Shown here: piece by piece, positions 35,201-57,479 of the stretch | How the letters are laid out: each line of letters begins with the position of its first letter | Numbering within the stretch: position 1 is the stretch's first letter | Source of the DNA: Takakia lepidozioides | Lineage: Eukaryota; Plantae; Bryophyta | Assembly (NCBI GenBank): GCA_030704615.1 | Contig: CM060734.1 | Location: 47,802,001-47,866,000, forward strand | Length of the DNA stretch: 64,000 nucleotides | Direction: 5' to 3' | Notes under the pieces: model-generated | Seen by the model: the letters and a program-made list of their open reading frames with translations, nothing else | What the model was told of the DNA's origin: nothing | The model's database searches: none | Position numbers and translations under genes: made by a program

Positions 35201-35209
35201 ATCACGGAG

Positions 35210-38200
35210 GTGCCACCAATTGTTGAGGGGAGTGCCGGTGCGAGCACCAGCGATACTAGTGGGTACACAAGACGAGGTGTGCGGTTTAGGCCACCTTCAC
35301 CTTCAGTATCTTCTGAAGAAGGTTCAGACTCGGAGTCGGGAGGATTCTCGCCGAGGGTGCAAGCCGTTTCCGTACCATTGTTGTGGGACACGATGGAGGA
35401 GATGTATGGAGCTACCAAGGGGTCACGTAGGTACTCTGGAGCTGTGGGCACCATTGAGCTTGATGACTTCATACGGGAGTTTGATAGTTGGTGTGATTTG
35501 CAGCAAATGCGCAATCCACAGTGTTTACGCATTTTATGGCGTGGAAGGGGCTATTCCAGCACCTTGAAGGGCCGCCCATGGATGAGTACCATGAATTTAG
35601 GCAGGGAAATGAGGTGAAGATTGAGGAGTGGCGACAATATTGGTCACTTGACCCATCACTAGAGGCACAGCAGCAAGATCCACGGCAACAACGGCAGCAG
35701 CTACACCAGCGGCTTCTACAAGCAGCAGCGGAACAAGTGAGTCAGGATCAGCTGAGACATCCATTGCAGTTCCTGCCATTGCACCAACACATGTACCTGC
35801 CTTCAACCCAATTGTGGAGTTCTTCCAAGAAATGAGAATGAACTATCAGGGGGTGAGAACAGAGAAGTTGCGGAGCTTGCAAGAGTTCCAACGAAAGCCT
35901 ACTGAGAGTTTGAGGGAGGCTTACACTCGCATGAGGCGCTTGATAAATGTAACCCAAGAGGTTACGAAAGCTCAAACAGTTCAATTCTGGTATGGCATAT
36001 TGGACAAGGAGCTTAGGAGAACGGTGCGGGATGCAACTCTCCTACAAGTGGCCCAACCCACCCTAGCAAATGTGTTTTTGCTAGACGAGCGGATAGAGCT
36101 CAACATGGTGGAGGAGCGGGTGGTTATGGTGGGGTTTGGCAAGGAGACACAACGAAGTGGGGCTCCTAGCCAACAACCTCCCCAACGTGCTTAAGGCAAC
36201 AAGGGGGTGCAGATGAAGCCTAGGGAAGGTCATAAGAGAGGATCTCAGATGCAAATGTCTCTTCCTTCATTCCCAGGCCAGCAACAGACGAATGTGTCAT
36301 GTTGGGATTGTGGAGGACCTCATGTCAAGAAAGATTGCCCGGAGAGAGGCAAAGGGCCGACACATGCACAACCTACACAATTACAGTGTGGGCATTGTGG
36401 CAAGTACGGGCATGAGGAGGCCCATTGCTATGACTTGCATCCTGAGCTACGTCCAGGCCAGTTCCAAGGGAACAATGGTGGCCGAGGACGAGGCAATGTA
36501 GTCCAGAGAGGTAGAGGAGGCAGATGTCGTGGTAGAGGTCGTAACCAACATCAAGGAGCACAGGGTCAAGGTCAAGGTCATGACCAAGGTATGGTGGATA
36601 GACTTGCCCAGCTAGAGCAACGTCTTGCTGCCATGGCCACTACTCATGTTGCGCCAGCTCCAAGGCCTGAGGTTCAAGCTCCACCTGCACAATGCCTAGG
36701 GAAGACCAAATTGGTATGGGCTTTATGTGTGGAGCCGCACTTGCAGGGTCGTTGCATGTACTAGACTCTGCTGCTGCTGTCACTCGAGCAGCAACGCGTG
36801 CTTATGAGCCAAGATGAGTGGATGTGGATTTTGATCCACGAAGGGGGGAAGCAAGTCATCAGACAAGGCTTCCACAGTCCTTTACAATGGCTGAGATAGT
36901 GCTACCTACGTCATCAATGGCACCCGCTCGCCCAAGTGTGTCAGAGGTAGAACCACGAGTGTCATTGGGGAGAGTTGGTGTGGCTCAGGAAATGCCAATG
37001 GGTGGTGCTGCAAAGCAAGGTGCAGCCAGTATATTGTTGGGGGCGGCTACGGCGGCTTGCCAAGCTCCATTGTTTTCTGCAATGACCATTACAATGCCGG
37101 GGATTCGGCCAGTTGCTGTGTTTAGACTAGCAGCTAGACTCTGTGATAGTAGTGGTGATACATCGGTACTATCTGCAGGGATAGCAGATAAGGTATAGTC
37201 TATGGATGCCTTAGATTCGAGGGTGAAGTCAACCACAGTTGCGCCATGGCAAGCGGCAGTTGCACGGTTGCAAGAGTTGCCAGCTAGGCCAGCCATTGAG
37301 CGCAGCATGGTGACTCCTGGGGTAGTCCTGGTGGACAATCGGGATGAAGTGTTTCAGTTGGGTGGCCCAATCGGGAGGAGGTATAGGCCACTGCGAGTCT
37401 TGTTGGATTCGGGAGCTCAACCATTGATGTTAGGGAGAGCGGCAATTGCAGGCTTGGGCCCGGATTTGGAGCCTTGCCCTTTCCAGATTCAGACGTCTTT
37501 AGGTGGTTCAGAGAAGGCGCGAGGGATCACATGCCATGAGCTCTTCATTCGACTACAGCCAGATCATCCTACGGATGGCTAAATCATGAGAGCCAAAGCC
37601 ATTGTTACGGACGTGATGTCATACAATGTGCTTGTTGGTGGGGCGGTGTTGTACCCCATGGGATTTACTTTGGACTTTTGGGAGGAAACGGGATCCTACA
37701 GGCCAGAATGGCAGTCAGGGGATGGGCGATGTACACTGCTCCTAGTGCGATTTATTGGGAATGTAGCGGTGGATCATAGGAGCATGATGCCCACATTGGC
37801 TGCATTCTCAGAGGTACAGTGGTGGCTTGGGGTGGTGAGCTCTTGGAGGGCAATAGCCATGCAGATGATAGGCCACCACCTGATGCGGACCAACAATTGG
37901 CATATAAGGCTGAGCTGCTTCCTCATGTGCTTGTGCATAGCTCACTGTGGGGTACAGTTGGGAATTTGCATCGAGTAGTAGGCGAGTGTGTGCAACAAGC
38001 ATGGCAAGAGGCCTTTCCATTGGTGGGTGAGGGGAATTCAATGACATCACTTGGACCTCCTCAGTTAGCTCCATTGGACACAGTGCCCATTACTTGGCAA
38101 CCACCTGACTCAGGGATTTGTTTGCTAGACCTGTTTGGAGGCATGATCACTGGGCTTGTAGGAGTGTTGCAAGCTGGGATTAAAGTACGCAAGTACTTGT

Positions 38201-40980
38201 ATGTGGAGAAGGATGAGATAGCTCGGCGTATTTCTATGCGCCACGTTGCCTTGCTCACATACCATTATCCTGAGTTGCTGCCTCTCTCGGTGATTCAAGG
38301 GTACCAAAAGGCCTTGCCATCAGACATTACCTTGCTGGGGGCAGATGATTTGGGCCGGCATGGTGCAATTGACTTGGTGATAGCTGGATGGCCTTGCCAA
38401 GGATACTCGATCCCGCAAGTCATGGGAATGGCTTGCATGATGCAAGGTCTCATTTGTTTTGGGAGATGTTACGAGTGTTGTGTGACTTGCAGGTGAGGCA
38501 AGTGCAACCTACAGCTTACATCCTGGAGAAGGTTCCTCTCATGGGGGATTCTCGGGCTAGGGTTATGGCTAGTGTGCATCAGGTGCGGTCTTGGATTGGA
38601 CCAACTGTATTATTGGATGCAGCTGCAGTGGGTTCACAGGCACATAGGCCTAGGTTGTGGTGGAGCAATCTTGCACCACCAGAGTTGCTCAAGAGAGCCT
38701 AAGATTCCATTCAACGGCCACCCAACCTCACAATTGAGGGCATTTTGGACCAAGGGAGGCAACCACAGAGAGTGCGACATGATGATCATCCACCTTTGGC
38801 GGTGGTCAATCGAGTGGGGCAACCACGTGCGGCCTTAATGCCTACACTCATGAGTTTTCCCTCGTCTCATGCTTTTTGAGACAATGGTCCAGGGTTGATT
38901 TGGGACAATGCGCTACAGCAATTGGTGGAGCCTAGTGCGGATGAGCGAGAACGGGCAATGGGGTTTGCCACGGGCACTACAGCTGTGTCAGCTTTGTCAG
39001 AGGCATCACGACGCCAGGTGTTGGGTTAGGCAATGGATCTCACTTCCATTGGATATTGCACCCTCTCTGCCCACTAAGACGGTGGAGGCAGTGAGTGGGG
39101 GCGAGCACAGGCCGATCGTGGGATGCAATCACCCATGGCAGATGTGGGATGAGATGCGCAAAGAGATAATCATTGGATCTCTCAAGCAGCAGTATGAGGA
39201 GTGGGGAGAGCCATACACTGAGGATTAGTTGGAGGCCAAGGTGGCTAAGGTTTTTGAAGAGGTTGAGAATATTTCTTGCTCAGAGGATGTTCTCAAGGTG
39301 GCTATGGCAGAGCAAGTGGAGGCTATGCCACAGTCAGGGTGGGCGGATAAGGCCCAAGAGGTTGTTATCTAGCAACCAAAGGATACGTTTCCTACCTCCA
39401 AGCCTGGTGTACCCAAGGTTGTAGTCACTGAGGATAATTGGGAACCAGATGTCAGACCTACAGTCACCGAATGAGAGAGACGGAAGATCCAACGATATCT
39501 AAGGGCTTATAGAAATTTCTTTGCCTTCAGTTTGAAGGGCCAGGAGATTCGTATTGATTTGGCAAGTGACACGCCAATTTTTTGAAGGCCCTACAGGTAT
39601 AGTGACATGAAGAGGTCTTTGATCCACTCGCGGACTATGGAGTTATTCGAAGCTGGATTGGTGGAGTTGTCAGGCGGGGAGTATGCCTCGGCAATGGTGA
39701 TGTCAGCTAAGAAAAATATCTATGGCAATTGGATAGAAAGGAGGATGTGTGGGGACTACCGTCTTGTGAACCGTCAGACTAAGTCCGATAGATATGCCAT
39801 GCCAACTCCAGAGGAGATATTTGATGCCATTGGGCATGCAAAGGTGTTTAGCACATTGGACTTGCGATCCGATTACCACCAGTTGTCAATCAAAGAGGCT
39901 GACAAGCAAAAGACGGCATTCTGGGGGATTGACCAACATGGGAAGGATTGTTTACACCAATGGCGGTCCCTACCGTTTGGATTGAAAAAAAAATTAATGC
40001 TCCTACAGAGTTTCAGAGGGTCATGGATAAGATTCTTGTGGGGCTAGACTTCGTCCGGTGCTACATTGATGATATCATCATCTTTAGTGCCACGGTTGAG
40101 GAGCATGAGAGACACCTTCAGGTGGTGTTTGAGCGCTTGAGAGCGCATAGGTTGAAATTGTACTCTGGGAAATGCAAGTTCTTCCATAGCCAGATTGAGT
40201 ATCTGGGCCACATGATATACCCTGGAGGATTGGGTGTTCAAAAGACGAAGGTGGAGGCCATTGCACGCATTCCACGCCCCATAGATGTTAGCAGAGTTCG
40301 TGCTTTCATGGGATTGGCAAACTACTATCGACAATTTGTCAAGGGATTTAGCAACATTGCAAAGGCTCTTACCAAGTTGACCAAGGTGGATCAGGAGTGA
40401 CAGTGGGAGGAGGAGCAGGAAGAAGCCTTTGAGGAACTCAAAGCTCGATTGACTTCTGCACCTATTTTGAGGCGGCATTTCCAGCTACATACGGATTGGA
40501 GTATGCTGGGGATTGGAGCAGTGCTCACACATGTGGATGATAAGGGAAGAGAGTTTGTAGTGGCATATGCTAGCCGCTCGAACAATGATGCTGAGGCAAA
40601 GTATAGTTCCTATAAAAGAGAGTGTCTAGCTGCAGTATGGGCAATGGCACATTTTAGATGCTACCTCTATGGCAATCTCTTCACCGTTGTCACAGATCAC
40701 CAACCATTGAAGTGGTTGATGGAGTCGGACAAGCTTACAGGGAAGCTTGCACGGTGAGAACTTATGCTTCAAGAGTACGACTTCCAGGTGGTGCATCGAG
40801 TCGGTATAGTCAATCGGGATGCAGATGGGTTGAGTCGTAATCCATGCACGAGCGAACATGATGATACTGGAGCTTGGTGGCATGGTGAGACGGATGAGGA
40901 GATGGTGCCATGATGACATGTATCTGCCTTTTTGTGCATTCTAGCAATGGGAGCTCAAGCTGGTCCATCCCATGTGATTG
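35210..40980 (+). mobile_element. Ty3/Gypsy retrotransposon copy 1 (gag-PR-DNMT-RT-RNaseH), decayed and 3'-truncated
   Basis: Gag (ESLREAYTRMRRL); Zn knuckles CWDCGGPHVKKDC and CGHCGKYGHEEAHC; protease VLLDSGAQ; C5-MTase motifs; RT RMCGDYR...FSTLDLRS...YIDDIIIFS; RNaseH LHTDWS...ECLAAVWA...TDHQPL. Many stops and frameshifts; ends before integrase. Confidence 0.93.
38110..39060 (+). pseudogene. C5-cytosine DNA methyltransferase domain (DNMT3-like) in Gypsy copy 1
   Basis: Motif I LLDLFGG, II YVEKD, IV AGWPCQG, VI ILEKVP (ENV mutated), VIII AHRPRLWW, X RRQVLG*AM. Frameshift just after the PCQ motif. Confidence 0.9.
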
Positions 40981-41576
40981 GTAAAGCCTTATTTTGTGCC
41001 AGGATGTGATTCTCTTTTTATCTAAAGCACGATCAGATTAGGGATGTGCAACTTCAAGAAGCAACGTGCTGTGCTCAAGCAAAAATAGTAGAGGAATGGC
41101 CAGAGGCCTGACGAATGCACAAACAACCCACATCCACGGCTTTGTCACGCAATCTGTACAGTAGGTTGAGCATACATGGTCAGCAAGACCGAAATACTCT
41201 CAAGCCGGGGTTGGGATAAGGCCCCAGCTGGCAACCTGCCATAAACTAGGTGGATTTCTATGTATCCTGGCCGTAGAGCCATCAAGGGCCAAGATTAAAC
41301 CAACCTGCCCTAGGGTTTAGCTGTACATGGTATAAGTCAAAGGTGTATAACGGCTTTCCGTCGGCTTATACTAAAGGCAGTGGATGAGCCTGACAAGTCA
41401 TAATGAAAAAGATGAATGTGGGGCCAAGAGATTATGGGGCATCACAAGCTTAAAGTTGTGGCTCCGTTGGGGTCTAATGTTGGACAAATCTCACACAAGA
41501 TATTGCTGATTATTAGATAATTTGACATTCTAAAAGAAATGTGAAAAGCTCGAACAGATTGTTTATATTATGTTAA

Positions 41577-42231
41577 CCCCTAAACACCCGCCGGCCCAAA
41601 ACGGGCCATTTTCTGGGCTCAAACAGGTCTGCCAGTCGCAGATTTTGGCCGATTTTGGTTTTTTTTGTTGGGTGCACTGCGTGTCGACGGCAGGATGGTC
41701 CATGCGAGAGCGATTGCCCAGATCAGGATGGACCAGGATGGACGGCCAAAATCTAGGGCTTTTTGGGGGGGGATTCTGCTTGCGGCTGCTCCCGCCTCTT
41801 TGTCTTTCTGTGCATAGCTCACAAAAGAGTATTTCATACCCCCTGCACTTTGACCAAGTCCCTGCTCCTGCCATGGGGTCCAATTCTGGTGATTTTGGGC
41901 TTGTTGGAACAAAGGGGACGTGGGGAACACCTTTTGGGGTACAGCAGGCCGAGACAATGCCATCCCAACATGCAAAATCTTGCAAATCTCCATTTTTTTA
42001 TTTTGTTTTTACAAAAATTTCCAAAAATGGGCCCCACTCACAACGGTGGGGTCTTCGTAGCATTTGTCTGATTGGCTCGAAATTTGGGTAGGACCTGCCA
42101 GGGGTAGGTGGCAACATATTGTCCGGTTGTTTTTTGCAGATGCATTTTTTCCAAAAAATTACGCTCATTTCTTTGGCCAGGGGTCAATTTTTTGAAGGAA
42201 AAGTCAACGGAGGCCTGCGGGCGTTTAGGGG
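41577..42231. mobile_element. piggyBac-like non-autonomous element (MITE), 655 bp
   Basis: TTAA (41573-41576) + CCCCTAAACACCCGC ... GCGGGCGTTTAGGGG + TTAA (42232-42235). TIRs match 14/15 and start with CCC; no transposase inside. Confidence 0.85.
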
Positions 42232-42336
42232 TTAAATCCTCACAAAGGTATTGTCAGTGCCCTGGTGTTCGGGCCAAATCAGGTATGAGATCTATTGTCT
42301 CAAGGCTATAACAAATAGAGTATATATATATACATA

Positions 42337-42362
42337 TGTGTGTGTGTGTGTGTGTGTGTGTG
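42337..42362. repeat. (TG)n microsatellite next to (TA)n
   Basis: Direct observation. Confidence 0.9.
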
Positions 42363-42461
42363 GATTCAGAAGTAATCATAGTCATCATGGTCTAGAGCAA
42401 GACCAATGTCTATTGTGGATTTGTTGATGAAACCAAAACATTTGTAAGTACTTTACGAGGT

Positions 42462-42866
42462 TTTTATTTTTTATTTTATTTTTTTGAAAGGGGACAGAGG
42501 CCCTGAAAAATTAATTAATAAGGAAAAACAAGAGACAAGCAAGGAAAAAATAACCTTGCAGGGGAGCCATAAGACCAACAAAGAGGCACCGCTCAGTATC
42601 TAGAGTTCAGAGGTAGATCCTATCGACACACTAAAAGGACTGTCTAAGCCAGTTAAAGACTGACAATAAACAAAAGAGGATCCTACAAAACAGAACCAAA
42701 GAGCAGAGGCAACTCCTACAAAATTGAAAGGGTCATAAGAGCTTGAGCCTATCACTTCCTCAAAGGAGGCTCGAAAGAGAGATGAATCCTGGATAGGCCT
42801 CCTGCAGCTCCGATGGTGGTGCCACTTGACCCGGGGAAGTCACTTCCAAATATTCCCAACCGACGT
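42462..42866 (-). mobile_element. Probable LINE 3' end fragment
   Basis: T-rich tract at ~42462-42486 (poly-A tail on the minus strand) adjoining a non-AT-rich segment that stops abruptly at ~42866, as expected for a 5'-truncated L1. Confidence 0.4.
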
Positions 42867-44300
42867 ACAAAATAATATATGGTGTAATTTATTTTTAAAA
42901 AGATTAAAAAAAACATTGAAAATTAATAATGGGTACATTATATTGTGATTAGGGAATTTCAATGAATATTGGGTTTAAAATAATGACTCATTTTATATTT
43001 TTTTTGTAAAGATTGCTATAGGGTTGAGATAATACATGTGGACACGTGTCGTCCAGTGATTAGTCCGTGGACACGTGTCGTGTATTTGGAGTTTAGGGTC
43101 TAATGGCAATGGAGGGGGTTTGAGTGCGGGGGTTTTCTATTTTTCTAATGGTAAGGGAGGGAGTTTCTTGTCGATTGTCATCCGTGAGGGCCAGATTTTA
43201 AGCACAAGATTACATTCGAATCCATGTGGATTGATAGCTACGAGAAACCTGTTGGATAAGCAGGATTCAAAAACTGAGAAGGAAAGCAGTGGGGGATATC
43301 GCGGCAGCCTATTGATCTCCTAAATAGACTAACCACACCAATTATGGTGTTATTAAACTACTTCAAAATCTAGAGGACAATTTAAATTTAAAAAATATGA
43401 TCATACCGACAACAAGTGGATAGATGTATACTCAGTTATTAATTCAGTCACTATGACTTTCGATAGAGTGCATAACGTTTACACCTTGAATAGTGATGAT
43501 GTGAATGATTTAAATTTATTTATTTCAACCAAATAATAAATTAGTCTTGGAATTTTTTTTTAAATATATGGTATTATTATTTTTAAATAAAAATAAAAAT
43601 AAAAATAACATATCAAAAATTCATCATATTACAAAATTATGTAATTATATGATACTAAAAAAATACCCAAAATAAAAATAATACCCCCAACAAATACCCA
43701 TTTATCTCACGTGCCCTATATAAGTAATAGATAGTGAATTCCCCGGGCCAATTGACTTCTTGCTCTTCACCTTCAGCGGGGGGAGTACTTTGCACTAATG
43801 GAACTCCCAGCATGCAGGGAGGGAGTTGCTCCATGCAACTCTAAGCTCGGCAATTCTGGAGCTGAAGACGACTCCTTACTTTGTTTTTTGTCAAAATAAA
43901 AATATGAAAGTTTACGATTCGGATTTTTTATTTATTAGTCTGCATGCTTTTAGTGTGGAGGTGATGACCACCTTGGAGTACTATAGTTTTTTTTTTAATA
44001 GTTTTATGGACCGTAACTCTATGTTTGTTGTAAGAGAAGAAGGGTCAAGTGACTATACGTTTGTTTTTATTATTATTATTTAATTTATTAAAATCGGGAC
44101 CTGTCGGTCCGATTCAATTAATCTGTATGTTAAAGATCCGGAGTTAAGATCCAGAGTTGGTAAGATCAAGTAGAGTTTGATATAATTGATAATTATATTA
44201 ATTGTCAGATTGCATAAAATTATTGAAAATTTTGGGCGGGAAATGAAAGACGAGTATATATAAAGGATAATGTGGGCATATCCTTCCTTATTTTATGCCC

Positions 44301-45944
44301 CAGTTGTCAATCATGACGTGACCTTACGCAAACACAACACGTCAGCATCACGTCCAAAATCGACTTTACGTCGAGTAATTTTTAATTTGTTTTCTGTATT
44401 TTCACAAGACCCAATTTATCCCATTGTCAAGGTGACGACCTACACACATGAAGTTCTTTTTGGTTATTTTATTGTTTTTTTTTTAAAAATAGTTCGGGCA
44501 ACGGCGACTGTCGGATGACAGTTGCGCAACCTCCGGCCGACAGCAAGGCGACTTCCGGACGCTATGCAGTTTATTTATTTATTTTAATTTCTTGAGTTCG
44601 GGCAACCGCTGGGTTACGGCGATGGAGGACAATTAGGTGACCTCCGGTTGACCGTCCGAAGACAAATAACAGTAGGACGACCGCTGGGCGATGGTGACTA
44701 TATAGGTTTTGGGTTTGGTCGATCGTCTAGGCGACAGCCATTGGGGACTATGCAGTTTTGTTTTTTTTTCCAGAAATTTTATGGGTTCGGCCAAACATCG
44801 AGCGATGGCGACAGTTAGGCAATCGCTGGACAACTGTCCGGCGATGGACGATGGTGGGTATGCGATTTTTTTATTTTATTTTGGGTTTGGACGACAGTCA
44901 GGTGACAGTTGGATAACCACCGGACGATGGTCATTGGTGATTATGCGGGGTTTTTTTTTATAAAATTTATTTGGGTTCATGCAATCACTGGGCGATGACG
45001 ACTGTCGAGAACACTTGGGTGACCACCAGGTGACAGACAACTTTGTAGTGACCCTAAACTACCATATATATTTTATAAAAAGATTGAACATGTTGAACTT
45101 GATGAGGATAATTTGGTTGTTGATGAAAATGCCTTTGACACACGCCTTATCATATTACTGAACCTCCAGTTCTTCGTTATACACAGTTAAGATTGTGAAT
45201 GAGTTTATATTAATTTTTATTCAAACAGGGTTTTTAGATCTGAAAGTTTATTCGCTGTCTACATCAAATTTTCAAAGTTTAAATTGTAGTATATTTTCGC
45301 GTCGTCCATCGATACTATATCTCACGTTGACGTGGTTTGTGTCACGTCAGTTTTAGGTGTCACTACTGGGGGGTTGAAAAGTCTGACACGTAAATGTTCA
45401 CGTCCCCCGAAAATTACACGTATTTACAATAATAATTAATAATTGATAATTAAAAAGCGTCATCACGGTCGTTCGGCCATCCCCGTCGGCACTGTTGGAC
45501 GACTATCACCGTCGCCCAATAGTAACCCAAACCTACTAAAAATAAAAATAAAACACACACACACACACATAGTTACGGTCGTCTGGCTGTCATAGCGGTC
45601 CCAATTTTTTCAAAAACAGCCATACCGCCAGTTATCCAACCGTTGCTCTGGAAGAAAAATAAATAAATAAATAAAAACAAAAAACAAAAAAACACATATA
45701 GCCACCGTCGTCCGAAGTCGGACGGTTGTCCATTGTCTAACAGCTCATTTAATTTATTTTTAAAAAAACAAGAAAATAAAAAATAAAAAACAAAAAATAA
45801 ATATCGTGTGTGCAGTACACGTGGGCTGCTACTTCGACAATGAGATAAATTTGGTCCTGTAAAAGTTTAAAAAAAATTAATCGACGTAATGTTTATTTGG
45901 GACGTGACACTGTTTGCGCCACATCACATCATAATTGACAATTG
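44301..45944. mobile_element. Foldback-type non-autonomous DNA transposon with long imperfect TIRs
   Basis: 44301-44445 (cagttgtcaatcatgacgtg...tttacgtcga...caatttatcccattgtc) is an imperfect reverse complement of ~45820-45944 (gacaatgagataaattt...tcgacgtaa...ataattgacaattg). Short cgacag/ccgtcg-type repeats lie inside both arms. Confidence 0.7.
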
Positions 45945-47149
45945 AGAGACTATATGAGCAAAGGAGAATACTTGAAGTAGTTTATATACAACATTATTAT
46001 TTCAAAAATTGTTTCATTGACTACATGTTTATAAATGTACATTATGTTTGTATTTTTGAATGAATTTTGATACACACTCTTTGTTTTTTCTTTAAAAAAA
46101 ATTGTTTGCGTTTGTCAGAATGAAGAATTTTCAAGTAAGTCGACTGCTAGAGTTATTGTTGTATTATAGATTATGACAGCTCGGTTTGATTTGGATTGAA
46201 ATTTTCATTGATTGTTTTGATTCGATTACATAATGTACATTATTTGTTGCATTGCTCAGTCCTATGCCTATTTTTATGACACTTCTCACACTTTAGTAGG
46301 GCTCTTTCAACTGGACAGTACTCTGCTATATGTCATGGTTGTTGACAGTTGTTACACACCCTAAACATCCCACATGGGAGCGTCCGACTTTCAGATGGTT
46401 GCAGGTTGTGAAACCTACGAAACGACATGTGAAGGACACTACTCTATGTGCTCCTCATCCAACTAGCAACAGCAACGATGTATCCCTCATACAAGATGAC
46501 TGAGAGATAAGTAGCACTGTGTATGGATTTATATTGTTGAAGTATAATGCAAGTGTAGAAGCGTCTATTTGAAGGGGAAAATGTAGTGTAGTTTATATTC
46601 ATGTATTCTGAGTTTGTAATGTGATTGACAATGCAGTTCAACATTTGGGATAAGGTGATCATATATGATTCTCATGCACCCAGAAATAAGGCCAGTGTGA
46701 GGTATATTTATTATTGCTGGCTACCCTACTGAAACAACATCACCCAAATTCTACCGCATCCAAGTCAAAGAAGTGAGTCTAAAAAATATCGTCTGGTCAT
46801 ATTCTAACTATGGCTTTATCCCCTAATTAGACTGAACTTGGTCACACTGTTAGGAAATCCACTCCGTGGTCGGGCAATCATCTCAAAAAAACTTTATAGT
46901 GAGATGTCACAGAATATTTGAGGCAGTTATAGCTCCTGTGAGCAGTATTTGATTTCGAGGGTTTTGAACTTTGTGACAGTGGTTCATGAAAGTAAGGCCC
47001 TCGTTTGTTTTCCCACCATGACAATTTGGGATGCCAAAAATTTTAGCATCAATGGAGCATGTTGTTACATGTTGGGAACAATGTGGTCCTTGTCTTGGTC
47101 CTTGTGGCCTTGCTCTTGTACATTTGGGAACAGATCTGTTCATATTCAC

Positions 47150-47450
47150 AGTTCAGGATTGTTGCGGCACATTATAGTTAGTTACCGCTTCATCTATTGA
47201 CTGAAAGATTGCTCCCAGTAAAAGTCGTCTTATCTTTAGTCTAGCCGTGAACAATCCTTCTTTGCTCAAGATCTGCAATTGCTCCTCTCTTGAACAAACG
47301 ATTCAAACGTTCGTAGTACACTGACACTCTCTGTTTGGATTCATGTTTTACTGAATCTAACTTCAATTTTTAATTTTATTGGACATACTTATCCAAACTT
47401 CGCTATAATGACAGTCTTAAAAGCTGCCCATGTAGCTGGTGAACATTGAA
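47150..47450 (-). pseudogene. Decayed LTR-retrotransposon gag fragment
   Basis: Minus strand reads ATWAAFKTVIIAKFG*...ESVSVYYERLNRLFKRGAIADLEQRR, a Retrotrans_gag-like pattern. Confidence 0.6.
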
Positions 47451-47740
47451 AACCTGGTACGGAACATGTTAACTATTGTTCCGTGTTTCGTAACAGGTTA
47501 CTTGACAGGTTGTAGTTCAGGTTCACCTTCAATACCAAGATATTCCTTACTTAAATCCTCTGATTCTTCATCTGACCCTATTGTATTGAATTCATTTCAT
47601 CAGTTAAGACCTTGGGTACAGATAAAAGGAATGATATTGTCACACTATTGGGTTTGATTCCATAAGTGATGGTTTCCATAGCCCTATCTGTACATGCTTG
47701 GGTCTGAACTAACCATGGTCTGCCCAACAACAATACATAT

Positions 47741-49690
47741 GAGTGTCCATCTGACGGGAACTAAATTTGCTCAAATTAAAAAAAATTAAATTATATGCGA
47801 CTGTCAAAAATTGGCGGTTGCTTGAATATTCAGTATTTTTGATAAGCTGCAATAATTTGATTTTCATTCTTTTTAAAAAACTAATGCAACCGCCAAGTTT
47901 AGCAGTCGCATGTAATGTTTTATTTCTTGAATATGTACAACAACTAATAATTATAACGGTCGCATGTTTTTTTTTAAAAATATGTTCGTTCATCATAATT
48001 GGCAGAAAGCACAAGTGTGTTTTCCCTATTGATTGAACAAGTTTCCATGTTCATTTTTCAAGCCATGGCAGAAAGCACAAGTATACGGTTTCTTGATACA
48101 CACATTTCAGTGCTTTGGAAAGTATAACTTTGACTTGTGAGATTACTGTCATTGCCCATTGACCCTCTATCAGATTATGGGATTGATGCTCCTTCCGACT
48201 TGCGACTTGGGCTTAACTCTCTGTATGAATATGCATGAATGCAGGTTGTGATGGGAAGACAAACGTTGAACCCGCAATTTTGCATGATGTCAACATACAA
48301 TGACATCTGTAATGAAGATCCCCTCCCATGTCTCCTCTGAAAGCACATACACAACAGCACCTCCCTTAATTCTGTGAGTAACATGCCGCATGTCGAATTT
48401 GATGGCACGCATGAGATGTGAGAAGATGACAACTCTAGACAAATCCTCTTTACACAGTTTATAATGTCGTTCGTCACGCCATGTTCGTTCATAGTACCTG
48501 CGAATCATGGAGTCATTTGATTTACATTATGTACACAAAATAATGGACGTCGTACAACATCAATAGACACATGAACTGTGATTTGAAGTGTGTATCTTTC
48601 CACGAGAACCATGTCTCCAATTTTATATCGGTTGCCCTAGCCATCAGTGGAATTGGATTTCACCATGTGTTTCTCTTCCTCGCATTGTACAATCCAAAAT
48701 CGATCCCCCTCTTTATTATCTTTTACAGCCTTAACAGCAAAATGATCCCTCACCTCAAACAAATCAGACAATCTATCATGATGACCTCTAATGCTTGAAT
48801 GCCTACGATCTACACCCACCATTTACGCTTAATAATCTTTTCATATTCACATATAATCCATTCACAATGCAAACATAATCTAAAGAACTCGTGTAATTTG
48901 CAAACATAACAGATCAAGTTTCATCTCTCAGGTCAAAGATCCCCTTTAAATTCCCATATTTGATGGCTCTAGAAGTAACAAATGTGGTACTTTGAGGGTG
49001 TTATGAATGCTTCTTTCTGAATTTAGATATGCAAAGGTTTATTTCCATTGAGCGCAGGCAGAAGTTTCCAGCCATGCACTATCAAATGAAATGAAACCAC
49101 AAATGACTCTCTATGGACTAAATACGTCAGCGTTACGTTATACGTCACGTGATTGGTGCGACAGCAAGGATTGGCGCTTGTATGTAATTTTTATTTTTTT
49201 AATATGTGCGACCGCCAGAATTGACAGGCGCAATCATTTTTGAAAAAATAAATTTAAAACGACCATTGATTTTGGCGGTCAATTTTTAAAAATATATGTA
49301 TATATATATATGAACAGGGGGTCACACTTATTTTTCAAAAAGCTTTTATATGCGGCCGTCGATTTTGGGTGGTCGCACGTGCTTTTGAAAATAAATTATA
49401 TGCGATCGCCGAATTTTGGCGGTTGCACACATTTTTTATAGAAAAAAATCTACGACCGCCGAATTTTGGCGGTCATACATATTTTCAAATAAAAATATTA
49501 TACGACTACCGAGTTTCAGCAAACTGTTGCACGTGTTTTTCTTAAGAATATTATGTGGGACTACGAATATAGGCGGTTGTAGTTATTTTTTAAATTTTAA
49601 TTAGATGCGATTCTCAATATTATGGCAGTCGCACGTATTTAATATATATATATCGTACCAACTATTGTCCCCTCCAAATGGATGTGACTG
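47741..49690 (-). mobile_element. Degenerate DNA transposon with subterminal repeats and a possible transposase C-terminal remnant (48290-48830)
   Basis: ATGCGACCGCC-like repeats at ~47790-47970 and ~49200-49640. Weakly inverted ends at 47741 and ~49660-49685. Remnant peptides DHFAVKAVKDNKEGDRFWIVQC and RYYERTW...FSHLMRAIKFDM resemble, from memory only, C-termini of plant DDE transposases. Confidence 0.4.
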
Positions 49691-50069
49691 TCAATTATCC
49701 TGATGCGGCTTTCGACCTTTTAATTTCTTTCGACTTTTTTCTTGCAACAATTTTGACGTGAGCTCGATTGGATCAGTAATGGTCTTTTAAGCAATGGAGT
49801 TAGCATATGTCATATAAGAGTTTGCAGACCGTTTATAATGATCAGTACGATGATGTTAGCTGGTATGATCTCCCAAATCCAGTTAGTTGTCAAGGTTGCA
49901 CATTGACGTGACGTCAGATCACGTCAGATCTCATGCTGATATGGCTTGCGTATAAAAATAATTAAAATATATAGGGATTAAAAAAATCACGTAAGCTAAA
50001 AAATACGAAAAAATAAATAAACAATCCAAAAGAAATGTCATGTTAGCTGTGATAATTTGTTAGCTTGAT

Positions 50070-51670
50070 AATGCGGGACCGCCAAAATTAGCGGTCCCAA
50101 ATTATTAATATTTTTAAAAAATTGAAAAAATCAGAGCTGGTGATCGTGAATTATCAATAAATAAATAAAAACTAGCGGTGATCCCGTTTTTTTAGAATAT
50201 TAATAAATTAGAATCGCAAATTTTGGAGGTCTTGATTTAAAATAATACACCGAACTATCAAGAAAATATTTAATTAATCCCAAAGAACAAATTGAACAAT
50301 ATGCACATACAAAGGTTTGCGACGCACTTTATACACGGATACGGACACGTGCACGGCCAATATTACCCTATAAAATCGTATGAAAAAAGACAGATTGTAT
50401 GAACAACGTAGGCCGGAACGACAAAGAAGGCAACAATCAAGTGCAAGGAGTGTATAAAGTAGAAAAACATGGAAGTATTTGAGACTTCAACCGCTGCACA
50501 TGATTATACTTTACATAAGAAAACCCAACGTTTGAAAAGTAGCACAACGGCGACTGGAACAATGCACCAGATAGGCTGATCATGAAGGAAAGTATAAGCA
50601 CTAAGCGCATGACAAACGATTTAACAACGGCCGAAGAAATCACGTACCATGAAAACAGCAGTCATCAGTAAGAGACGAAAGCGCAAGTAAGACACGAAAA
50701 TACTTAGGTCAATTTCACGGTCCCAAATTATCAAGAAAACATTTAATAAATCGAAAATGCAAGCTCTGGCGGTCCCATATTTCTTAAGAATATTTAATAA
50801 ACCGGACTGCTAGATATATATTTAATTATTTAATTATTCTTACTTGGGATAAATTCGGGGACAGCCAGAGCTGGCGCCATCCCAATTTTCTTTGAGTTTA
50901 TTCAATTGATTTTCTGGATAAAATTGGGACCGTCACAGCTGGTGGCCCCGATTTTTTTTTCTCTTATGGATAAAATCGGGAGGGACCGACAAAGCAGACA
51001 GTCCCAATTGTTTTTATTTTTTAATTTTTTTAATTTACAATCGGGCCGCCAGAGGTGGCAGTCCCAATTTTTTGGCATATATTATTTTTGTTAAAATAAA
51101 AGCAGCTAAAGTTAGAGGTCCTAATTTTTTTTCAATTTAATTTTTTCAATTTAAATTCGGGACTGCCAGACCTATGGTCCCAATTGTTTTTATTTTTTCT
51201 AAGTTTGTTTAAAAAATCAGGACTACCAGAGCATTTGGTCTGAATTTTTTATTTGATTTATTTATTTTATTAAATTCGGGATTGTCAGAGCGCAATAAGC
51301 TACTAATTCATAGAAGTAGGAATTGTTTTATATGGCATAAGCTATGAAAACTATAATCATCTAACTGTAAAGGTAGAAAACTTCACACATCTTTGATACT
51401 AATCACTCCTTAGAGCTTGCGATCCTAATTTTTTATTTTTATTTTTCATATATTCTCAATTGAAATCAAGACCGCAAGTGGTGATGGACTAGATTGTTTT
51501 TGAAAAAAAATTAAATTAAAATCCGGACGGCCTAAGTTGGCGGTCCCAATTTATTTAATTTTTTATTTTTTATTTGTATAATCGGGACTGCTAGCAGCTG
51601 GCGGTCCTAATTTTACTCACAAAACACTAAAAAATAAAAAATCAGAACCGTCAGTTCCGGCGGTCCCAAT
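50070..51670. repeat. Array of GGGACCGCCAG/CTGGCGGTCCC subterminal repeats in AT-rich spacers (left block)
   Basis: Many copies in both orientations, often as palindromic pairs around a short loop, e.g. ~50075-50098 and ~51040-51066. Confidence 0.75.
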
Positions 51671-52601
51671 TTTATCCTTAAATATGTCAAGTTAAATAAA
51701 CACAGTGTAAAACTAACTAAAATAAATCTAATTATTTGTATTTAACACTTGGAGTTGAAGTGTTAAGTCAGGTGTCAAGTTTAGCTTGACACCTGAACCA
51801 TCTTATCTTCACGAGCTCATCAGTCGTGCGGCTCATCTCTCTCGAGTGATTGAAACTAGATTTACACTGTTGACACATAAACATTCAATACAACACAATC
51901 ACTCATTAAAACTACGAGTTGAGCCAAGGGCACCCCAAGCTATAGTAGCTCGTTCTAACCAACCCTCCTCCTCTTTCTGCCAGGTAGAGACAAAGCAATA
52001 TTTCCCTATCTCCCGGTCACTGAATACTAAATAAAATAAAGGTAGGGTCTGACAGTCTTTCAACTCGAAAGTTTTGAGACGGTTGCGAGTGTCCTCATTG
52101 CGAATGACTGCATCTCCTTCAAGCAGAACAAACTTGTCATTGCTAATGAACCCCCACTCGTGGTTGCCTTGTGTACAGCTCCCTGTGACATTGCCAACAC
52201 TAGCAGCCTTCACAGCTGCGCGTGCGCGTACTATAACTGCGCTACCGAGGTGATTGTCTTGTAGTGCGGGCTAACGCGGAAGCTACGTGCTTCCGTTCAC
52301 GTACTATAATCGTGTAGCCTCGGGACGAAGTCGTAGTGCGGCTTCGACGTGTTCCCGTACCTCAGGCCAGCATTCCAAGGTGGACCCAATTGTAGTGATT
52401 GGGGCGCACGGTTGGTTCAAGGTTATCTTCCTAGTCAAAGAGGGTTCAAGGTGAACCCTTGCTAGTTGGTCTGGAGGGTTGCTGGAGGGCAATGCCCATG
52501 CAGAGGATGTGTCACCTCCAGCAGAGCAGGATGACACGCATGGTACGGCGGAGTTGCCTGCCATGGTTGCTCACACTCCATTATAAGGTACGAGCAAAGA
52601 T

Positions 52602-54005
52602 TTGCAGCAAGCTGCTGATAGACGGGTGCAACAAGCCTGGGTAGAGGCCTTCGTACCGTCAGGAGAGGAGGAGAATGCGGTGATTGCACCAGGACCACCT
52701 CAGTTGTCGCCATTGGATACCACACCTCTTGGGTGGCAGTGCCCACATGAAGACATATACCTTCTGGACTTGTTTGGTGGGATCAGCACTGGATTGGCTG
52801 CAGTGCTGCAGGCAGGTGTACGAGTTCGATGTTACTTGTATGTGGAGAAGGATGAGACTGCACGACGCGTCGCACTGCGCCATGTTGCTCAGTTGGTCCA
52901 GCAGTACCATGATTTGTTGCCAGTGTCTGCAGTTCGTGGATACCAGCAAACATTGTCAGCATACATCTCTTTGCTGGGGACGCATGATTTGGAGCGGGTT
53001 GACCATATTCACTTGGTAGTGGCAGGTTGGCCCTGCCAAGGGCATTCATCAGCCGGGCATGACAATGGGTTACAAGACTCAAGGTCACGCCTATTTTGGG
53101 AGATGTTGAGGGTCCTACGCTATTTACAGCTTCAGCAGACAGACTCTCCGGCATATATCTTGGAGAATGTGCCATTGATGGGTGATTCTCGGGCCAAGGT
53201 GATGGCCAGTGTGCATCAAGTGCGGTCTTGGTTTCGGTTAGCAGTGTTTTTGGACGCAGCTGCAGTGGGGTCACGGGCTCATCGCCCACTACTATGGTGG
53301 ACCAACTTGATGCCACCTGCACTGCTCAAGCGTGCATCTGATGGGGTGCAGCGGCCACCACACCTGACGGTGGATAGCATTTTGGACATAGGGAGACAGT
53401 CTCAGCGTGTGAGACACGATGAGCGATCATCTTTGGCAGTGGTCAATAAGGTGGGTGACCAACGAGCCGCATTGCCTACACTGCTCAGCTTTCCAGGATC
53501 TCATGCTTTTCGCGATGGTGGACCTGGCCTCTTGTGGAATAGCCAGTTGCAGCAATTTGTGGAAGCCAATGCTGACGAGCGCGAGCAGGCGATGGGTTTT
53601 ACCACTGGTACCACGGCGGAGCCATCTCTTTCTGAGGCATCATGTCGTCAAGTGTTGGGGCAAGCAATGGATCTCAATTGCTTGACCTGGATTATCAGCT
53701 TGGCTATGGCTGAGCAGCGCCGAGTACGGAGTACACTTCCTTTGATGGTCTCCCTGCCTACCGAGACGGTACAGGCAGAGTGTGGGGGTGAACAGGTAAG
53801 GACCACGAGGTGTAGGCTGCATCCATGGCACACGTGGGAGGTGTTCGAGGTTCAGAAGGAGTTGGTAGCCAAGGCGACGGTGATGGATGAGGTTGGGGAT
53901 TTTTCTTGGGTTGAAGAGGTCCTTAAGGATGGGATGATGGGGCAGGATGAGACGTTGTCACTAACAGAGGAGGCAATGGTCACTGCTCAAGAGGTTGCAG
54001 CATAG
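52602..54005 (+). CDS. Retrotransposon-borne C5-cytosine DNA methyltransferase (DNMT3-like), open reading frame but probably non-functional
   Basis: Motifs in canonical order: LLDLFGGIS, YVEKD, VAGWPCQG (catalytic Cys), RSRLFWE, ILENVP, AHRPLLWW (second Arg of RxR lost), RQVLGQAM. No ATG before motif I, and an in-frame TAA lies at ~52584. Confidence 0.9.
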   Translation: MQQAADRRVQQAWVEAFVPSGEEENAVIAPGPPQLSPLDTTPLGWQCPHEDIYLLDLFGGISTGLAAVLQAGVRVRCYLYVEKDETARRVALRHVAQLVQQYHDLLPVSAVRGYQQTLSAYISLLGTHDLERVDHIHLVVAGWPCQGHSSAGHDNGLQDSRSRLFWEMLRVLRYLQLQQTDSPAYILENVPLMGDSRAKVMASVHQVRSWFRLAVFLDAAAVGSRAHRPLLWWTNLMPPALLKRASDGVQRPPHLTVDSILDIGRQSQRVRHDERSSLAVVNKVGDQRAALPTLLSFPGSHAFRDGGPGLLWNSQLQQFVEANADEREQAMGFTTGTTAEPSLSEASCRQVLGQAMDLNCLTWIISLAMAEQRRVRSTLPLMVSLPTETVQAECGGEQVRTTRCRLHPWHTWEVFEVQKELVAKATVMDEVGDFSWVEEVLKDGMMGQDETLSLTEEAMVTAQEVAA

Positions 54006-56994
54006 CAACCACGGGACGCGTCTTCTACCTCTAAGCCTGCTGGACTTAAGGTTGCAGTCACGGAGGACAACTGGGAGGCTGATGTTGGACCTATAGTCAC
54101 CGGAGGAGAGAGACGACATATACGGCAGTTCTTGAGGGCTTACAGGAACTGCCTCTTCTTCAGTTTGAAAGACTTGGGAGCACTGAAGGGTCAAGAGATT
54201 CGCATTGAATTGGCCACTGATACGCCAATCTTTCGGAGACCCTATAGATACAGTGACATGGAGAGGTCCTTGATTCAGATGAGGACTCAGGACCTCTGGG
54301 AGGCTGGTTTGGTGGAGCTATCGGTGGAGAGTATGCTTCAGCCACAGTGATGCCAGCCCAGAAGGATGTCTATGGCAATTGGACGGAGAGACGTATGTGC
54401 GGTGATTACCGGCCTGTAAATCGTCAGACCAAGTCCGATAGGTATGCCATGCCAACACCAGAGGAGATCTTTGATGCCATTGGGCATGCCAAGGTCTTTA
54501 GCACTTTGGATTTACGATCCGGATATCACCATTTGCCGATCAAGGAGGCGGATAAGCAGAAGATGGCATTCTGGGGGATCAATGAGCACGGGAAGGATTG
54601 CCTATACCAGTGGCGGTTCTTACCATTTGGGCTTAAGAACGCTCCTGCACAGTTTCAGAGAGTCATGGACAGGATTTTAGCAGGGGTAGAGTTTTTTCGG
54701 TGCTACATAAATGACATCATCATCTTTAGTGCTACGGTGGAGGAGCATGAGAGACACCTTCAGGTGGTATTTGAGCGCTTGAGGGCGCACGGATTGAAGT
54801 TAAATCCGGGGAAGTGCAAGTTTTTCCACAACCAGATTGAGTATTTGGGTCACATGATATATCATGGAGGATTGGGGGTACAGCAGACTAAGGTAGAGGC
54901 CATTGCACAGATTCCACGTCCCACGGATGTGAGCCGAGTTCGAACTTTCATGGGGTTGACAAACTATTATAGACGGTTTGTCAAGGGATTTAGTGCCATT
55001 GCAAAGGCTCTAACCAAGCTGACCAAAGTGGACCAGGAGTGGCAGTGGGAAGATGAGTAAGAATGAGCTTTCCAAGAGCTCAAGGTGAGGTTGACCTCGG
55101 CACCCATCTTGAGACGACCTATCAGGGGGCGTCCTTTTCAGCTGCATACAGATTGGAGCATGCTGGGGCTTGGAGCGGTGCTCACATAGGTAGATGATGA
55201 GGGAAGAGAGTTCGTAGTGGCTTATGTCAGTCGCTCGAACAACGCTGCAGAGGCTAAGTATAGCTCATATGAGGGAGAGTGCTTAGCTGCAGTGTGGGCC
55301 GTGGCACACTTCAGGTGCTATCTATATGACAATCTCTTCACCCTTGTCACAAATCACCAGCCACTCAAGTGGTTGATGGAGTCAGACAAGCTTACGGGGA
55401 AGCTTGCACGGTGGGCACTCATACTTCAAGAGTATGACTTTCAGGTTGTGCATCGACCGGGTTTGGTCAATCGGGATGCGGATGGGTTGAGTCGCAATCC
55501 ATGCACGAGCCAGCAGGATGACACTGAAGCTCGGTGGCATAGTGAGACGGACGAGGAGATGGTGCCCGGATGACATGCATCTGCATTTCTGTGTATCTTG
55601 GCAGCGGAAGGCCAGGTTGGACCTACAACAGGGATGACTGTAGACCGAGTGTCTGAGGACCCTGAGGCCAGCAATGAGCAAGGTGGCGCCAAAGATATAT
55701 ATGAGGATTCAGTTGTGTTGGACTACCTCCGCACTGGAGACACAGCAGCCACTGTGACTGCCAAGGAGAGGGATTGGATCCTACAATGAGCCAAGAGGTT
55801 CAAGTGGGAGGGGACACACCTGCTCCGAGTGTGGGAGGATGGTCGACTGAGGATTGTGCCTCACCCAACACAGCGGGCACGGTTAGTGCGGCATGCCCAT
55901 GAGGAGTTGGGGCATTTTGGGGTGCGACACACTCATAGTCTACTGCAGGGGTAGTATTGGTGGCGTGGTATGCACACAAAGGTGCAACAATTTGTGGCTA
56001 GGTGCATGGTGTGTGACAGGGTGCGTGCTTCATTCAACGCCCCTACTCCACAATTGCACCCTCTTCCGATCATGGGATTGGGCTACAAGTGGAGTCTTGA
56101 CTTCGCAGGGCCATTGCCATTGACCATGCGCCACAACAAGTACGTGTTGGTGATGGTAGAGCACTTCTCCAAGTGGATCGAGTTGGTTCCATTGCCTGAT
56201 AAGGCTAGTGAAGGAGCTGCGTATGCATTCTTGGATTGTGTACTTAGCCGATTCGGTGCTCCAGTTGAGGTACTCACGGACCAAGGGAGAGAGTTCTTGG
56301 GGAGTTTCAGGCTTTGTGTGACAAGGCCTTGGTAGACCACCGCACCACTTCTCGGGATCATCCTGAGGCCGATGGCTTAGCAGAGAGGGTTGTTTAAACA
56401 GTAAAGAGGGGTTTGCGCAAGTATGGCTTGCAGAAGGGACACCTAGGAGATTGAGACCTTTAGTTACCCTGGTTAGTTATGGGCTACAGGTTCAGCAAGC
56501 AAGCATCACTTGCCTCATTCTCACCATATTTTCTTCTCTTTGGCCGAGAGCCGGATTTGCCTACATCCACTCGTAAAGAAGCTGCTACAGTTCTTAACCT
56601 TGATGATCCGGACGTGTGGGCACCTGCATGAGATCAGCGTGCAGAGTTGTTCAAGAAAGTCATGCCCATGGCTTTCGAGAATCTTGTCATTGCACAACAT
56701 CGTGATACGTTGAGGTATGCTACCATACGTGGTGGGGACTATCGTCCTGGGATCCGGAGATTTAACCCTGGTGACTATATTTATCTGCAACAGGCTGCTC
56801 CTACGACCTTGGATGTGACTGCAGGACGTATTATTTTGAGGGTTCGAGAGGTACTGCCCTCAGGCGTCTTGATCTTGTAGGGTCGGGATGACATAACTTG
56901 GAAGGACCATGTGCGTAATTGTGCGTCATGTCACCTTCCGAATGTCGATGGCAGGATTGACCCAAACCTGGCAGTGGTACCTGCAAGTTTGAGG

Positions 56995-57138
56995 TGCATG
57001 TTGTGTGGGTCTGCTAGAGGGGCAGCCACCATGCTGGTGTGTGATCAATGCTCTAGAGGTTGGCATATGGGATGTTTGACTCCACCTCTTGAGATGGTTC
57101 CTGATGGGGATTGGTTATGTCCGCATTGCATTGGATAG
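56995..57138 (+). other. PHD finger at the integrase C-terminus
   Basis: CMLC...MLVCDQCSRGWHMGCLTPPLEMVPDGDWLCPHC is a complete C4HC3 PHD, in frame with the integrase C-terminal region. Confidence 0.92.
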
Positions 57139-57479
57139 TGGGAGTGGATACAACCATGGAAGGCTAACAAGAAATGTACTAGGAGACCAACACACAAGAT
57201 CCTGACTCAAGTTCACAGATTGCAAGACGACGACTAACGATGGGGTTGCTCTTGTACCCGGCCTCTTGGTCTATAGAGTTTGAGTACAATAAGGACAGTG
57301 ATAGAGGACTTAGTACGGCTGTGGCTATTACATCTTGTTAAAGGGACCTAACCACCAGCTAGGGGGGCGATTGTGGCAGACTATTTTATTGTGCATATAT
57401 GTATGGTGTGGTTTGGACAGCGATGTAGTTGTGTAGCGATACGTATGCGCACGACAAATTTGAGTAAAAAAATAAAAAA

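Follow-up and report, generated by a model that had tools for sequence, protein, structure and literature searches.

Why would a moss retrotransposon carry a DNA methyltransferase just ahead of its reverse transcriptase? The question is raised by a 64,000-nucleotide stretch of the Takakia lepidozioides genome (assembly GCA_030704615.1, contig CM060734.1, positions 47,802,001 to 47,866,000 of the forward strand; to be referred to as the window, and numbered from its first letter). The window contains two decayed copies of one Ty3/Gypsy retroelement, both on the + strand, at ~35195-40973 (copy 1) and ~52587-57456 (copy 2). In each copy a cytosine-5 (C5) DNA methyltransferase (DNMT) domain is followed by an in-frame stop codon and then by the reverse transcriptase (RT), and this arrangement recurs in metagenome relatives. 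On balance, we favor the reading that this is a moss Ty3/Gypsy element whose first open reading frame (ORF1) encodes Gag, protease (PR) and DNMT and ends at a conserved and probably leaky stop codon, and in which the DNMT would be packaged at capsid levels and would methylate the element's own complementary DNA (cDNA).

A preliminary description of the locus had placed a C5-methyltransferase domain directly upstream of RT in both copies, and downstream of the protease in copy 1. Both placements hold, with the DNMT coordinates correct. The DNMT and RT do not form one unbroken frame, however, as an in-frame TAG intervenes (at 39370 and 54003). That description did not include this stop and its read-through context, nor the PHD finger, the split repeats at the ends, or the wide range across bryophytes. 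The coding features of the two copies, including RNase H (RH) and integrase (IN), are as follows.

35195..36760, + strand: copy 1 gag, including the zinc-knuckle region, interrupted by frame changes and one stop
37319..37750, + strand: copy 1 aspartic protease (LLDSGA; Asp_protease_2, E 5.5e-4), with one stop, at 37580
38095..39056, + strand: copy 1 DNMT3-like C5 methyltransferase domain, broken
39370..39378, + strand: copy 1 in-frame TAG CAA CCA, between the DNMT linker and Pol
39373..40973, + strand: copy 1 RT and RH, broken
52734..53720, + strand: copy 2 DNMT3-like domain, inside the open frame 52587-54005
54003..54011, + strand: copy 2 in-frame TAG CAA CCA, predicted read-through site
54006..55570, + strand: copy 2 RT and RH, broken (RVT_1, E 5e-32; RT_RNaseH, E 4e-26)
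55700..56877, + strand: copy 2 DDE integrase (H2C2, rve), broken (rve, E 1e-11)
56881..57138, + strand: copy 2 C-terminal PHD finger (PF00628, E 1e-11)

Both window copies are dead. The gag region of copy 1 matches Retrotrans_gag at E 0.0013, below the Pfam cut-off, and is 40-53% identical to ORF1 of a metagenome relative (L003) by tblastn. In the DNMT of copy 1 the frame changes directly behind the PCQ motif, ENV is replaced by EKV, and stops are present at 38700, 38877 and 39027; the copy is cut off at ~40973, without integrase or PHD finger. Copy 2 lacks gag and protease, and its pol has 11 stops and two frame changes. Its DNMT frame is open, but the second Arg of motif VIII is Leu. In the profile check that had been proposed for the locus, this frame scores 43.6 bits with PF00145, whose cut-off is 22 (E 3.4e-11). 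The two copies are 68% identical across the DNMT and 77% across RT-RH.

The order gag-PR-DNMT-RT-RH-IN-PHD is repeated in the metagenome relatives, represented here by the best 80 of 140 loci (L001-L080), as far as their contigs extend. The suggestion that the DNMT position is a family feature is thus borne out, as the same position recurs in many of these loci. The PR-RT-RH-IN order with a DDE integrase is that of Ty3/Gypsy elements (Metaviridae). In run X1, 4525 contigs cover 701 bases of copy 2, and the family is large and varied; a library clustered at 50% identity yields 190 clusters at E up to 1e-30. Named DNMT homologues come from Marchantia polymorpha, M. paleacea, Calypogeia fissa, Riccia sorocarpa, three Sphagnum species and Closterium, and the Marchantia polymorpha gene models Mp4g09160 and Mp8g17980 correspond to the Gag-PR-DNMT frame of the family. 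The Closterium elements group with the PR-DNMT-RT elements. No vascular-plant name is found among the matches listed (the best 120 of 161, and 69 of 69), most of which are nameless, so that absence from vascular plants is not implied. One family member (P0023) is filed under a bacterial metagenome bin as a DNA cytosine methyltransferase, and probably represents a contaminating contig. Matches among viral contigs were limited to distant methyltransferases of phage type (56 loci, none stronger than E 3e-11), and these were left aside.

The stop between DNMT and RT is conserved. In each window copy an in-frame TAG CAA CCA occupies the same place, with the DNMT linker before it and the RT leader after it. 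A total of 60 junctions were compared (58 of the 80 loci and the two window copies; four were placed by hand, and five were shifted by one codon where the CAR codon had itself decayed to a stop). A stop is present at 58 of them (TAG in 43 and TAA in 15), and the site is followed by CAR in 55 of the 60 and then by YYN in all 60. The second of these codons specifies Pro, Leu or Ser, yet it is always YYN. As a control, CAR-YY follows 7 of the 819 decay stops in the same loci, and CARYYA follows none. UAG-CAR-YYA is the motif of type I (tobamovirus) read-through (PMC5382211, PMC3159437), and it is found in both window copies and in L003, L055, L056 and L059. The junctions represent about five lineages, namely the window family, L003, a Sphagnum-like group, L071, and L055/L056/L059. 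The DNMT of the last lineage is just 43-47% identical, and its junction reads TAG CAG TTA or TAG CAA TCA.

Three further observations concern the position of this stop. At 54001-54011, no differences at a level of at least 1% are listed among 641 run X1 contigs, compared to 8 variable places nearby among the 111 considered, and therefore the stop of copy 2 is not a private mutation. Among long homologues that are not of type B and have a detectable motif X, 26 of 33 end 70-190 residues past this motif (110 in copy 2); three of the 26 are gene models that extend into Pol. Finally, the stop is missing from the elements P0313, P0326 and P0441, which the RT tree places as sisters of the clade that has it (FastTree support 0.98 and 0.998), and also from the related P0159, P0160 and P0332. 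P0313 has PR-DNMT-RT-RH-IN in a single frame. As these stopless sisters carry both parts in one frame, a joined DNMT-Pol protein is a natural form. With an in-frame stop between DNMT and RT, ORF1 is therefore Gag-PR-DNMT in the stop-bearing elements.

Extended stems on the 3′ side of the stop are common in read-through cassettes (PMC3159437), and a candidate is found in copy 2.

54015..54120, + strand: copy 2 predicted long-range RNA stem 3′ of the stop, with arms at ~+13..+31 and ~+97..+118

The arm at +13..+31 pairs best with an arm 79-120 nucleotides downstream in seven of eight junctions, when compared with 48-49 other windows in each. For copy 2 the duplex has a predicted energy of -16.7 kcal/mol, which none of the 48 other downstream windows reaches. 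Between the L055/L059 lineage and the bryophyte lineages, a change in one arm is accompanied by a change in the other. With their own partners the arms have energies of -18.7 and -21.2 kcal/mol, compared to mostly -5 to -12 kcal/mol in cross pairs with the bryophyte-group arms. Folding z-scores for the 110 nucleotides after the stop are weak in most rows (-3.2 to +1.0).

The RT-RH-IN-PHD portion is probably made by read-through of the stop. The other routes to Pol would be splicing across the stop or reinitiation behind it. Splicing is used for Pol by Ogre/Tat elements. In the bryophyte lineages the stop is followed by a tract that is rich in pyrimidines and ends in AG, and in public gene models from Marchantia, Sphagnum and Closterium (P0126, P0161 and P0187) DNMT is connected to RT while part of the linker is left out. 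However, the join points differ among these models, and the tract is missing from L055, L056 and L059, where the 5′ arm of the predicted stem instead matches the changed 3′ arm. For reinitiation, an ATG is located at +7 in the Sphagnum-like group. In L055, however, a 1369-codon ORF1 is followed by a single TAG CAG TTA and an in-frame 1047-codon ORF2 that has no Met before residue 117, which is inside RT; in L003 the earliest ORF2 Met is at 48. A single in-frame stop between open frames is kept in L055, L059 and L003, which argues against both routes. We consider it unlikely that splicing or reinitiation takes the place of read-through.

The DNMT domain itself belongs to the DNMT3 type. A profile built from 17 family members has DNMT3A, 3B and 3C as its top matches, and DNMT3A is collinear with it in three stretches (best E 1.7e-19). 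Weaker matches are to DRM (1.9e-9), bacterial enzymes (2e-6) and M.HhaI (5e-6). Since the match to DNMT3A is collinear, the motifs are unpermuted, and the domain differs in this from plant DRM, which has a circular permutation of the motifs. The motif order proposed in the preliminary description stands, while the set of motifs that it listed is a composite of both copies. The AlphaFold model of the copy 2 domain has a mean predicted local distance difference test (pLDDT) score of 59.8, with the target-recognition stretch (residues 208-266) below 50. A structure search with this medium-confidence model returned solely DNMT3 structures among the 36 matches listed (best E 4.9e-13).

A family that lacks the catalytic motifs, raised early on as a possible outcome, is not what the homologues show. 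The residues for S-adenosylmethionine (SAM) binding, the catalytic Cys, ENV and RxR are kept in ~90% or more of the protein homologues, compared to a median column conservation of 69%. The Cys is kept in 136 of 140, the Glu of ENV in 158 of 167, and the two Args of motif VIII in 158 of 175 and 154 of 171. The corresponding locus counts for motifs IV and VI are circular, the loci having been found by patterns that hold those motifs. Decay of the two motif VIII Arg codons, to His, Cys, Tyr, Gln or a stop, is seen in 35 and 25 of 80 loci (L001-L080), a pattern that deamination of methylated CG would be expected to leave in old genomic copies.

The DNMT domain is under purifying selection and is co-inherited with RT. 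Its dN/dS is 0.08-0.17 in 10 of 13 pairs, all of them divergent; it is 0.10 for the pair of window copies, and 0.14 for L055/L056 at a dS of 0.26. The DNMT and RT trees that had been suggested were built from 24 elements having both domains; the set did not include an outgroup or host DNMT3, DRM, CMT and MET1. The 13 PR-DNMT-RT elements form a single clade with 100% support in each tree and with near-identical inner branching, and the two trees overall have 10 of 21 splits in common. Both the purifying selection and the co-inheritance with RT speak for the domain having a function.

Two readings without methyl transfer bear on this evidence. The first is that a piece of a host DNMT3 was captured by chance, or inserted into the element, and has no function. 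The dead state of both window copies would fit with this. However, the same position in many loci, dN/dS values of ~0.1, congruent trees, a range from Closterium to liverworts and mosses, and the 190 clusters at 50% identity make it barely tenable. The second is that the domain is kept for binding DNA, an RNA-DNA hybrid or SAM, or for particle structure. The Klebsormidium enzyme showed no activity in yeast (PMC5890265), and some distant relatives have E or S in place of P in the PC motif, both of which would agree with a non-catalytic use. Conservation of the SAM-binding, Cys, ENV and RxR residues above the median column makes this second reading highly improbable, and the conserved motifs suggest that the DNMT is probably catalytically active.

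In the reading that we favor, translation of the genomic RNA would yield Gag-PR-DNMT, and rare read-through would add RT-RH-IN-PHD. The protease would then free the DNMT within the particle, where the sole DNA should be the new cDNA. That the DNMT acts on cDNA is a hypothesis of de Mendoza et al. (PMC5890265), whose text reports de novo CG methylation in yeast by the SymbioDIRS-Dnmt3 enzymes. We find cDNA reasonably likely as the substrate here. The methylated cDNA would be integrated by the DDE integrase, possibly steered by the PHD finger through reading of chromatin; such guidance has been proposed for the PHD of a Chlamydomonas Gypsy element (bioRxiv 2022.06.16.496473). With pre-methylated cDNA, the insertion might resemble host DNA, or might arrive silenced and spare the haploid host.

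The enzyme could also act in the nucleus, with the free ORF1 product methylating existing copies or host loci and thereby curbing the expression of the family or adding to host methylation. A position before the stop would make the DNMT abundant, beyond the need of a particle with two cDNAs. Moreover, Physcomitrium DNMT3b is reported to carry out de novo CG and CHH methylation (PMC6453930), and host benefit and stray activity are among the options raised by de Mendoza et al. (PMC5890265). Fusion to Gag, however, would be expected to draw the DNMT into particles, no targeting domain was found in ORF1, and the PHD finger is on the integrase side. We give nuclear action a small share of the probability.

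Several observations weigh against packaging of an active DNMT encoded ahead of a leaky stop. Neither window copy has the full set of catalytic motifs. The exact CARYYA is present in just 7 of the 60 junctions, and the large Sphagnum-like group has CAA CCC and then an ATG in frame. This one group accounts for most of the 58 loci, several being apparently the same insertion, and the number of independent lineages is therefore only about five. For the predicted stem, the windows were picked after the folds had been seen, its 3′ arm also codes for conserved residues, and copy 1 does not single it out, as 8 of 48 windows are equally good. RNAalifold on the 12-row junction alignment gave no consensus pairs, with the register of the stem shifting between lineages, and both window copies, folded over the whole segment, do worse than shuffled sequences (z of +1.8 for copy 2 and +1.1 for copy 1). 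As for selection, dS is above 1 in most DNMT pairs, two close pairs of decayed copies have dN/dS of 0.48 and 0.52, and one pair is saturated. The observed/expected CpG ratio is 0.45 and 0.53 in the copies and 0.42 in window positions 1-30000. As the copies are not set apart from host DNA, CpG/CHG depletion was rejected as a sign of self-methylation. Lastly, the KnitGypsy-Dnmt3 enzyme, the nearest one described, gave no methylation in yeast, a result that its authors call inconclusive in the text (PMC5890265).

The ends of the element differ from those of a standard long terminal repeat (LTR) retrotransposon. In the window they are represented by two features.

32380..35190, + strand: copy 1 tentative 5′ end and long leader (TGTCATG at 32380; 41-bp and 67-bp tandem repeats)
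57361..57370 and 57372..57456, + strand: copy 2 3′ end, with the polypurine tract and terminal repeat B, from TG at 57372 to CACGACA at 57456

The data on the repeats come mainly from the Sphagnum-like group. These relatives open with a 340-bp repeat A, starting TGTCATG, and close with a polypurine tract and a 112-bp repeat B that ends in CACGACA or a near variant. The polypurine tract AGGGGGGCGA lies immediately before B in the window and in the relatives. In copy 2, the tract and the start of B match those of the relatives at 80-92%, and the end motif is likewise the same. The TGTCATG of copy 1 resembles the start of repeat A, a tentative assignment, and the leader region at 33600-35400 has zero matches among the fetched metagenome loci. 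With a TGG start as the sole criterion for a tRNA primer-binding site, none of five loci viewed has one after repeat A.

Canonical paired, identical LTRs are not found. The ends are instead A-internal-B or A-internal-B-A-B, with a complete A-coding-B-A-B in L046 and L080 and its 3′ end in L036. Of the 30 loci in which a 3′ B is present, 21 stop at it, five end in A-B after an earlier part, three continue into A, and one is at a contig edge. Copy 2 ends in a single B at 57456, like the 21, and this is the lone end in the window with a visible CA. Ten loci have both ends, and a 4-bp target duplication is exact in seven of them, has one mismatch in two and is absent from one, whereas cross pairs give 0 of 90. 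Both end forms carry these duplications, and TG...CA ends with a duplication of 4-6 bp are characteristic of Ty3/Gypsy elements. The family thus behaves as a Gypsy element, though not as one with the canonical pair of LTRs. Copies with a single B could have arisen by recombination between two Bs, or by integrase use of the inner B end. As the repeats are split though the target duplications are true, LTR-finding tools would miss the family.

Two other classes were considered on account of these ends. The DIRS/PAT tyrosine-recombinase class was rejected, as an rve integrase and 4-bp duplications are present and there are no recombinase matches. Troyka, described with CG...CG ends, a 3-bp duplication and animal hosts (PMC12440569), was rejected given the TG...CA ends and 4-bp duplications here. 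The B-A junction reads GACA-nn-TGTC (L008:12618, L046:10488, L080:10344 and, in a divergent locus, L059 near 8230), like two joined attachment sites. A different, neighboring RH-IN-PHD element at L052:12622-15207 has its own repeat-spacer-repeat 3′ end, and the split-repeat layout is therefore not confined to one family.

The surroundings of the two copies were also inspected. A segment of ~790 bp of unrelated DNA (51684-52470), which begins with TGTCA and has a 123-codon frame on the minus strand, replaces the 5′ half of copy 2; it has zero matches in the fetched loci, Pfam or Atlas. Arrays of AT-rich units of 50-60 bp with a palindromic GC core lie on both sides of copy 2 (50730-51680 and 57460-57770) and are partly inverted relative to each other. 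Several decayed fragments in direct repeat occupy 59800-64000, and presumably resemble pentatricopeptide repeats (PPR), going by their motif. A single-frame SLT1-like gene at 26215-27654 (- strand) is 85% identical to Sphagnum balticum, 80-81% to Physcomitrium and 66-70% to lycophytes. The preliminary description had taken the flanking genes to indicate a land plant, which agrees with the moss host and with this gene being closest to moss sequences.

DNMT-bearing retrotransposons had been noted beforehand as known from Symbiodinium and charophyte algae, in agreement with the literature (PMC5890265), and the kind of element is already known from a charophyte. Our best reading is that the family is a land-plant branch of the streptophyte Gypsy-DNMT3 elements, a likeness to Klebsormidium that is drawn by description, none of the matches being named Klebsormidium. 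KnitGypsy-Dnmt3 of Klebsormidium nitens, as described in the text of PMC5890265, has the Gypsy domain set, an unpermuted DNMT3-like domain and a streptophyte host. It also has DIRS-like A-coding-B-A-B repeats with Gypsy domains, and its DNMT is under purifying selection (Ka/Ks < 0.2, compared to 0.08-0.17 in the 10 divergent pairs here). However, its DNMT is placed in the Pol ORF, whereas that of the moss family ends ORF1, together with Gag-PR, before the stop, although read-through would join it to Pol. The read-through signal, PHD finger and target duplication of the moss family do not appear in the portions of that text consulted.

Other known systems are more distant. SymbioDIRS-Dnmt3 and SymbioLINE-Dnmt of Symbiodinium are also retrotransposons with a C5 methyltransferase, of DNMT3 type and with split repeats in the former, but are described with tyrosine recombinase or LINE machinery, have no DDE integrase and represent independent capture (PMC5890265). 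Green-algal and metagenome Gypsy elements with the order RT-RH-DNMT-IN-PHD (P0163 and the Scenedesmus pol P0322) have a DNMT of 33-41% identity, a related RT and a PHD after the integrase, but their DNMT is located between RNase H and integrase in a single Pol frame. This second, larger architecture accounts for 27 of 138 new representatives, plus one with a protease (P0162-P0185 and P0319-P0447); one member is named Scenedesmus pol, and in some the P of the PC motif is replaced by E. The EpiLTRs of Fernandez-Moreno et al. (bioRxiv 10.64898/2026.05.21.726589) also pair a C5 DNMT with a chromatin-reader domain within an LTR element, but according to the text available they have a DNMT4-related enzyme, an adenine methyltransferase and a chromodomain. 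Their authors consider them distinct from the streptophyte Gypsy-DNMT3 elements, and the text seen mentions no bryophyte occurrence. Stop read-through, of type I in tobamoviruses and of gag-pol in murine leukemia virus (MuLV), shares the in-frame UAG, CAR-YYA and a predicted extended 3′ stem (PMC5382211, PMC3159437, PMC5009743); the stop of the moss family, where read-through is predicted, differs in following protease and DNMT, not Gag alone. PpDNMT3b is likewise an unpermuted DNMT3-type catalytic domain in a moss, but is described as a host gene with its own N-terminal domain (PMC6453930), whereas the retroelement DNMT is intronless and inside a polyprotein.

That the land-plant case was uncharacterised is consistent with the literature, in which we found no DNMT-bearing retrotransposon of bryophytes and no read-through site in such elements, with subscription journals and Repbase Reports outside the search. 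Two papers of the de Mendoza group use 'streptophytes' for Gypsy-DNMT3, citing the 2018 work, in the text seen, and bryophyte members may be present in supplementary trees. According to a 2019 opinion paper, in the part consulted, land plants such as tracheophytes have no transposons that carry DNA methylases (PMC6338049). What is new here is the occurrence across bryophytes, the placement of the DNMT at the Gag level before a conserved stop with predicted read-through, and the presence of target duplications in the split-repeat form.

The placement of the stop predicts a large excess of DNMT over RT and integrase, a stoichiometry that we have not found described for these elements. The split repeats together with true target duplications pose a separate replication puzzle. 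As a bolder and more doubtful proposal, an old streptophyte lineage in mosses and liverworts may load its particles with many active DNMT3 enzymes by way of read-through, with the cDNA entering the genome methylated; its split A-B-A-B ends and internal CA-nn-TG junction may reflect a replication route that is based on the integrase and has yet to be described, with either B end able to act as the right attachment site. Why retrotransposons carry a silencing enzyme has been an open question since 2018, because the known hosts, dinoflagellates and Klebsormidium, are hard to manipulate. The family is present in Marchantia, and the question is therefore testable in a plant with knock-outs and methylomes.

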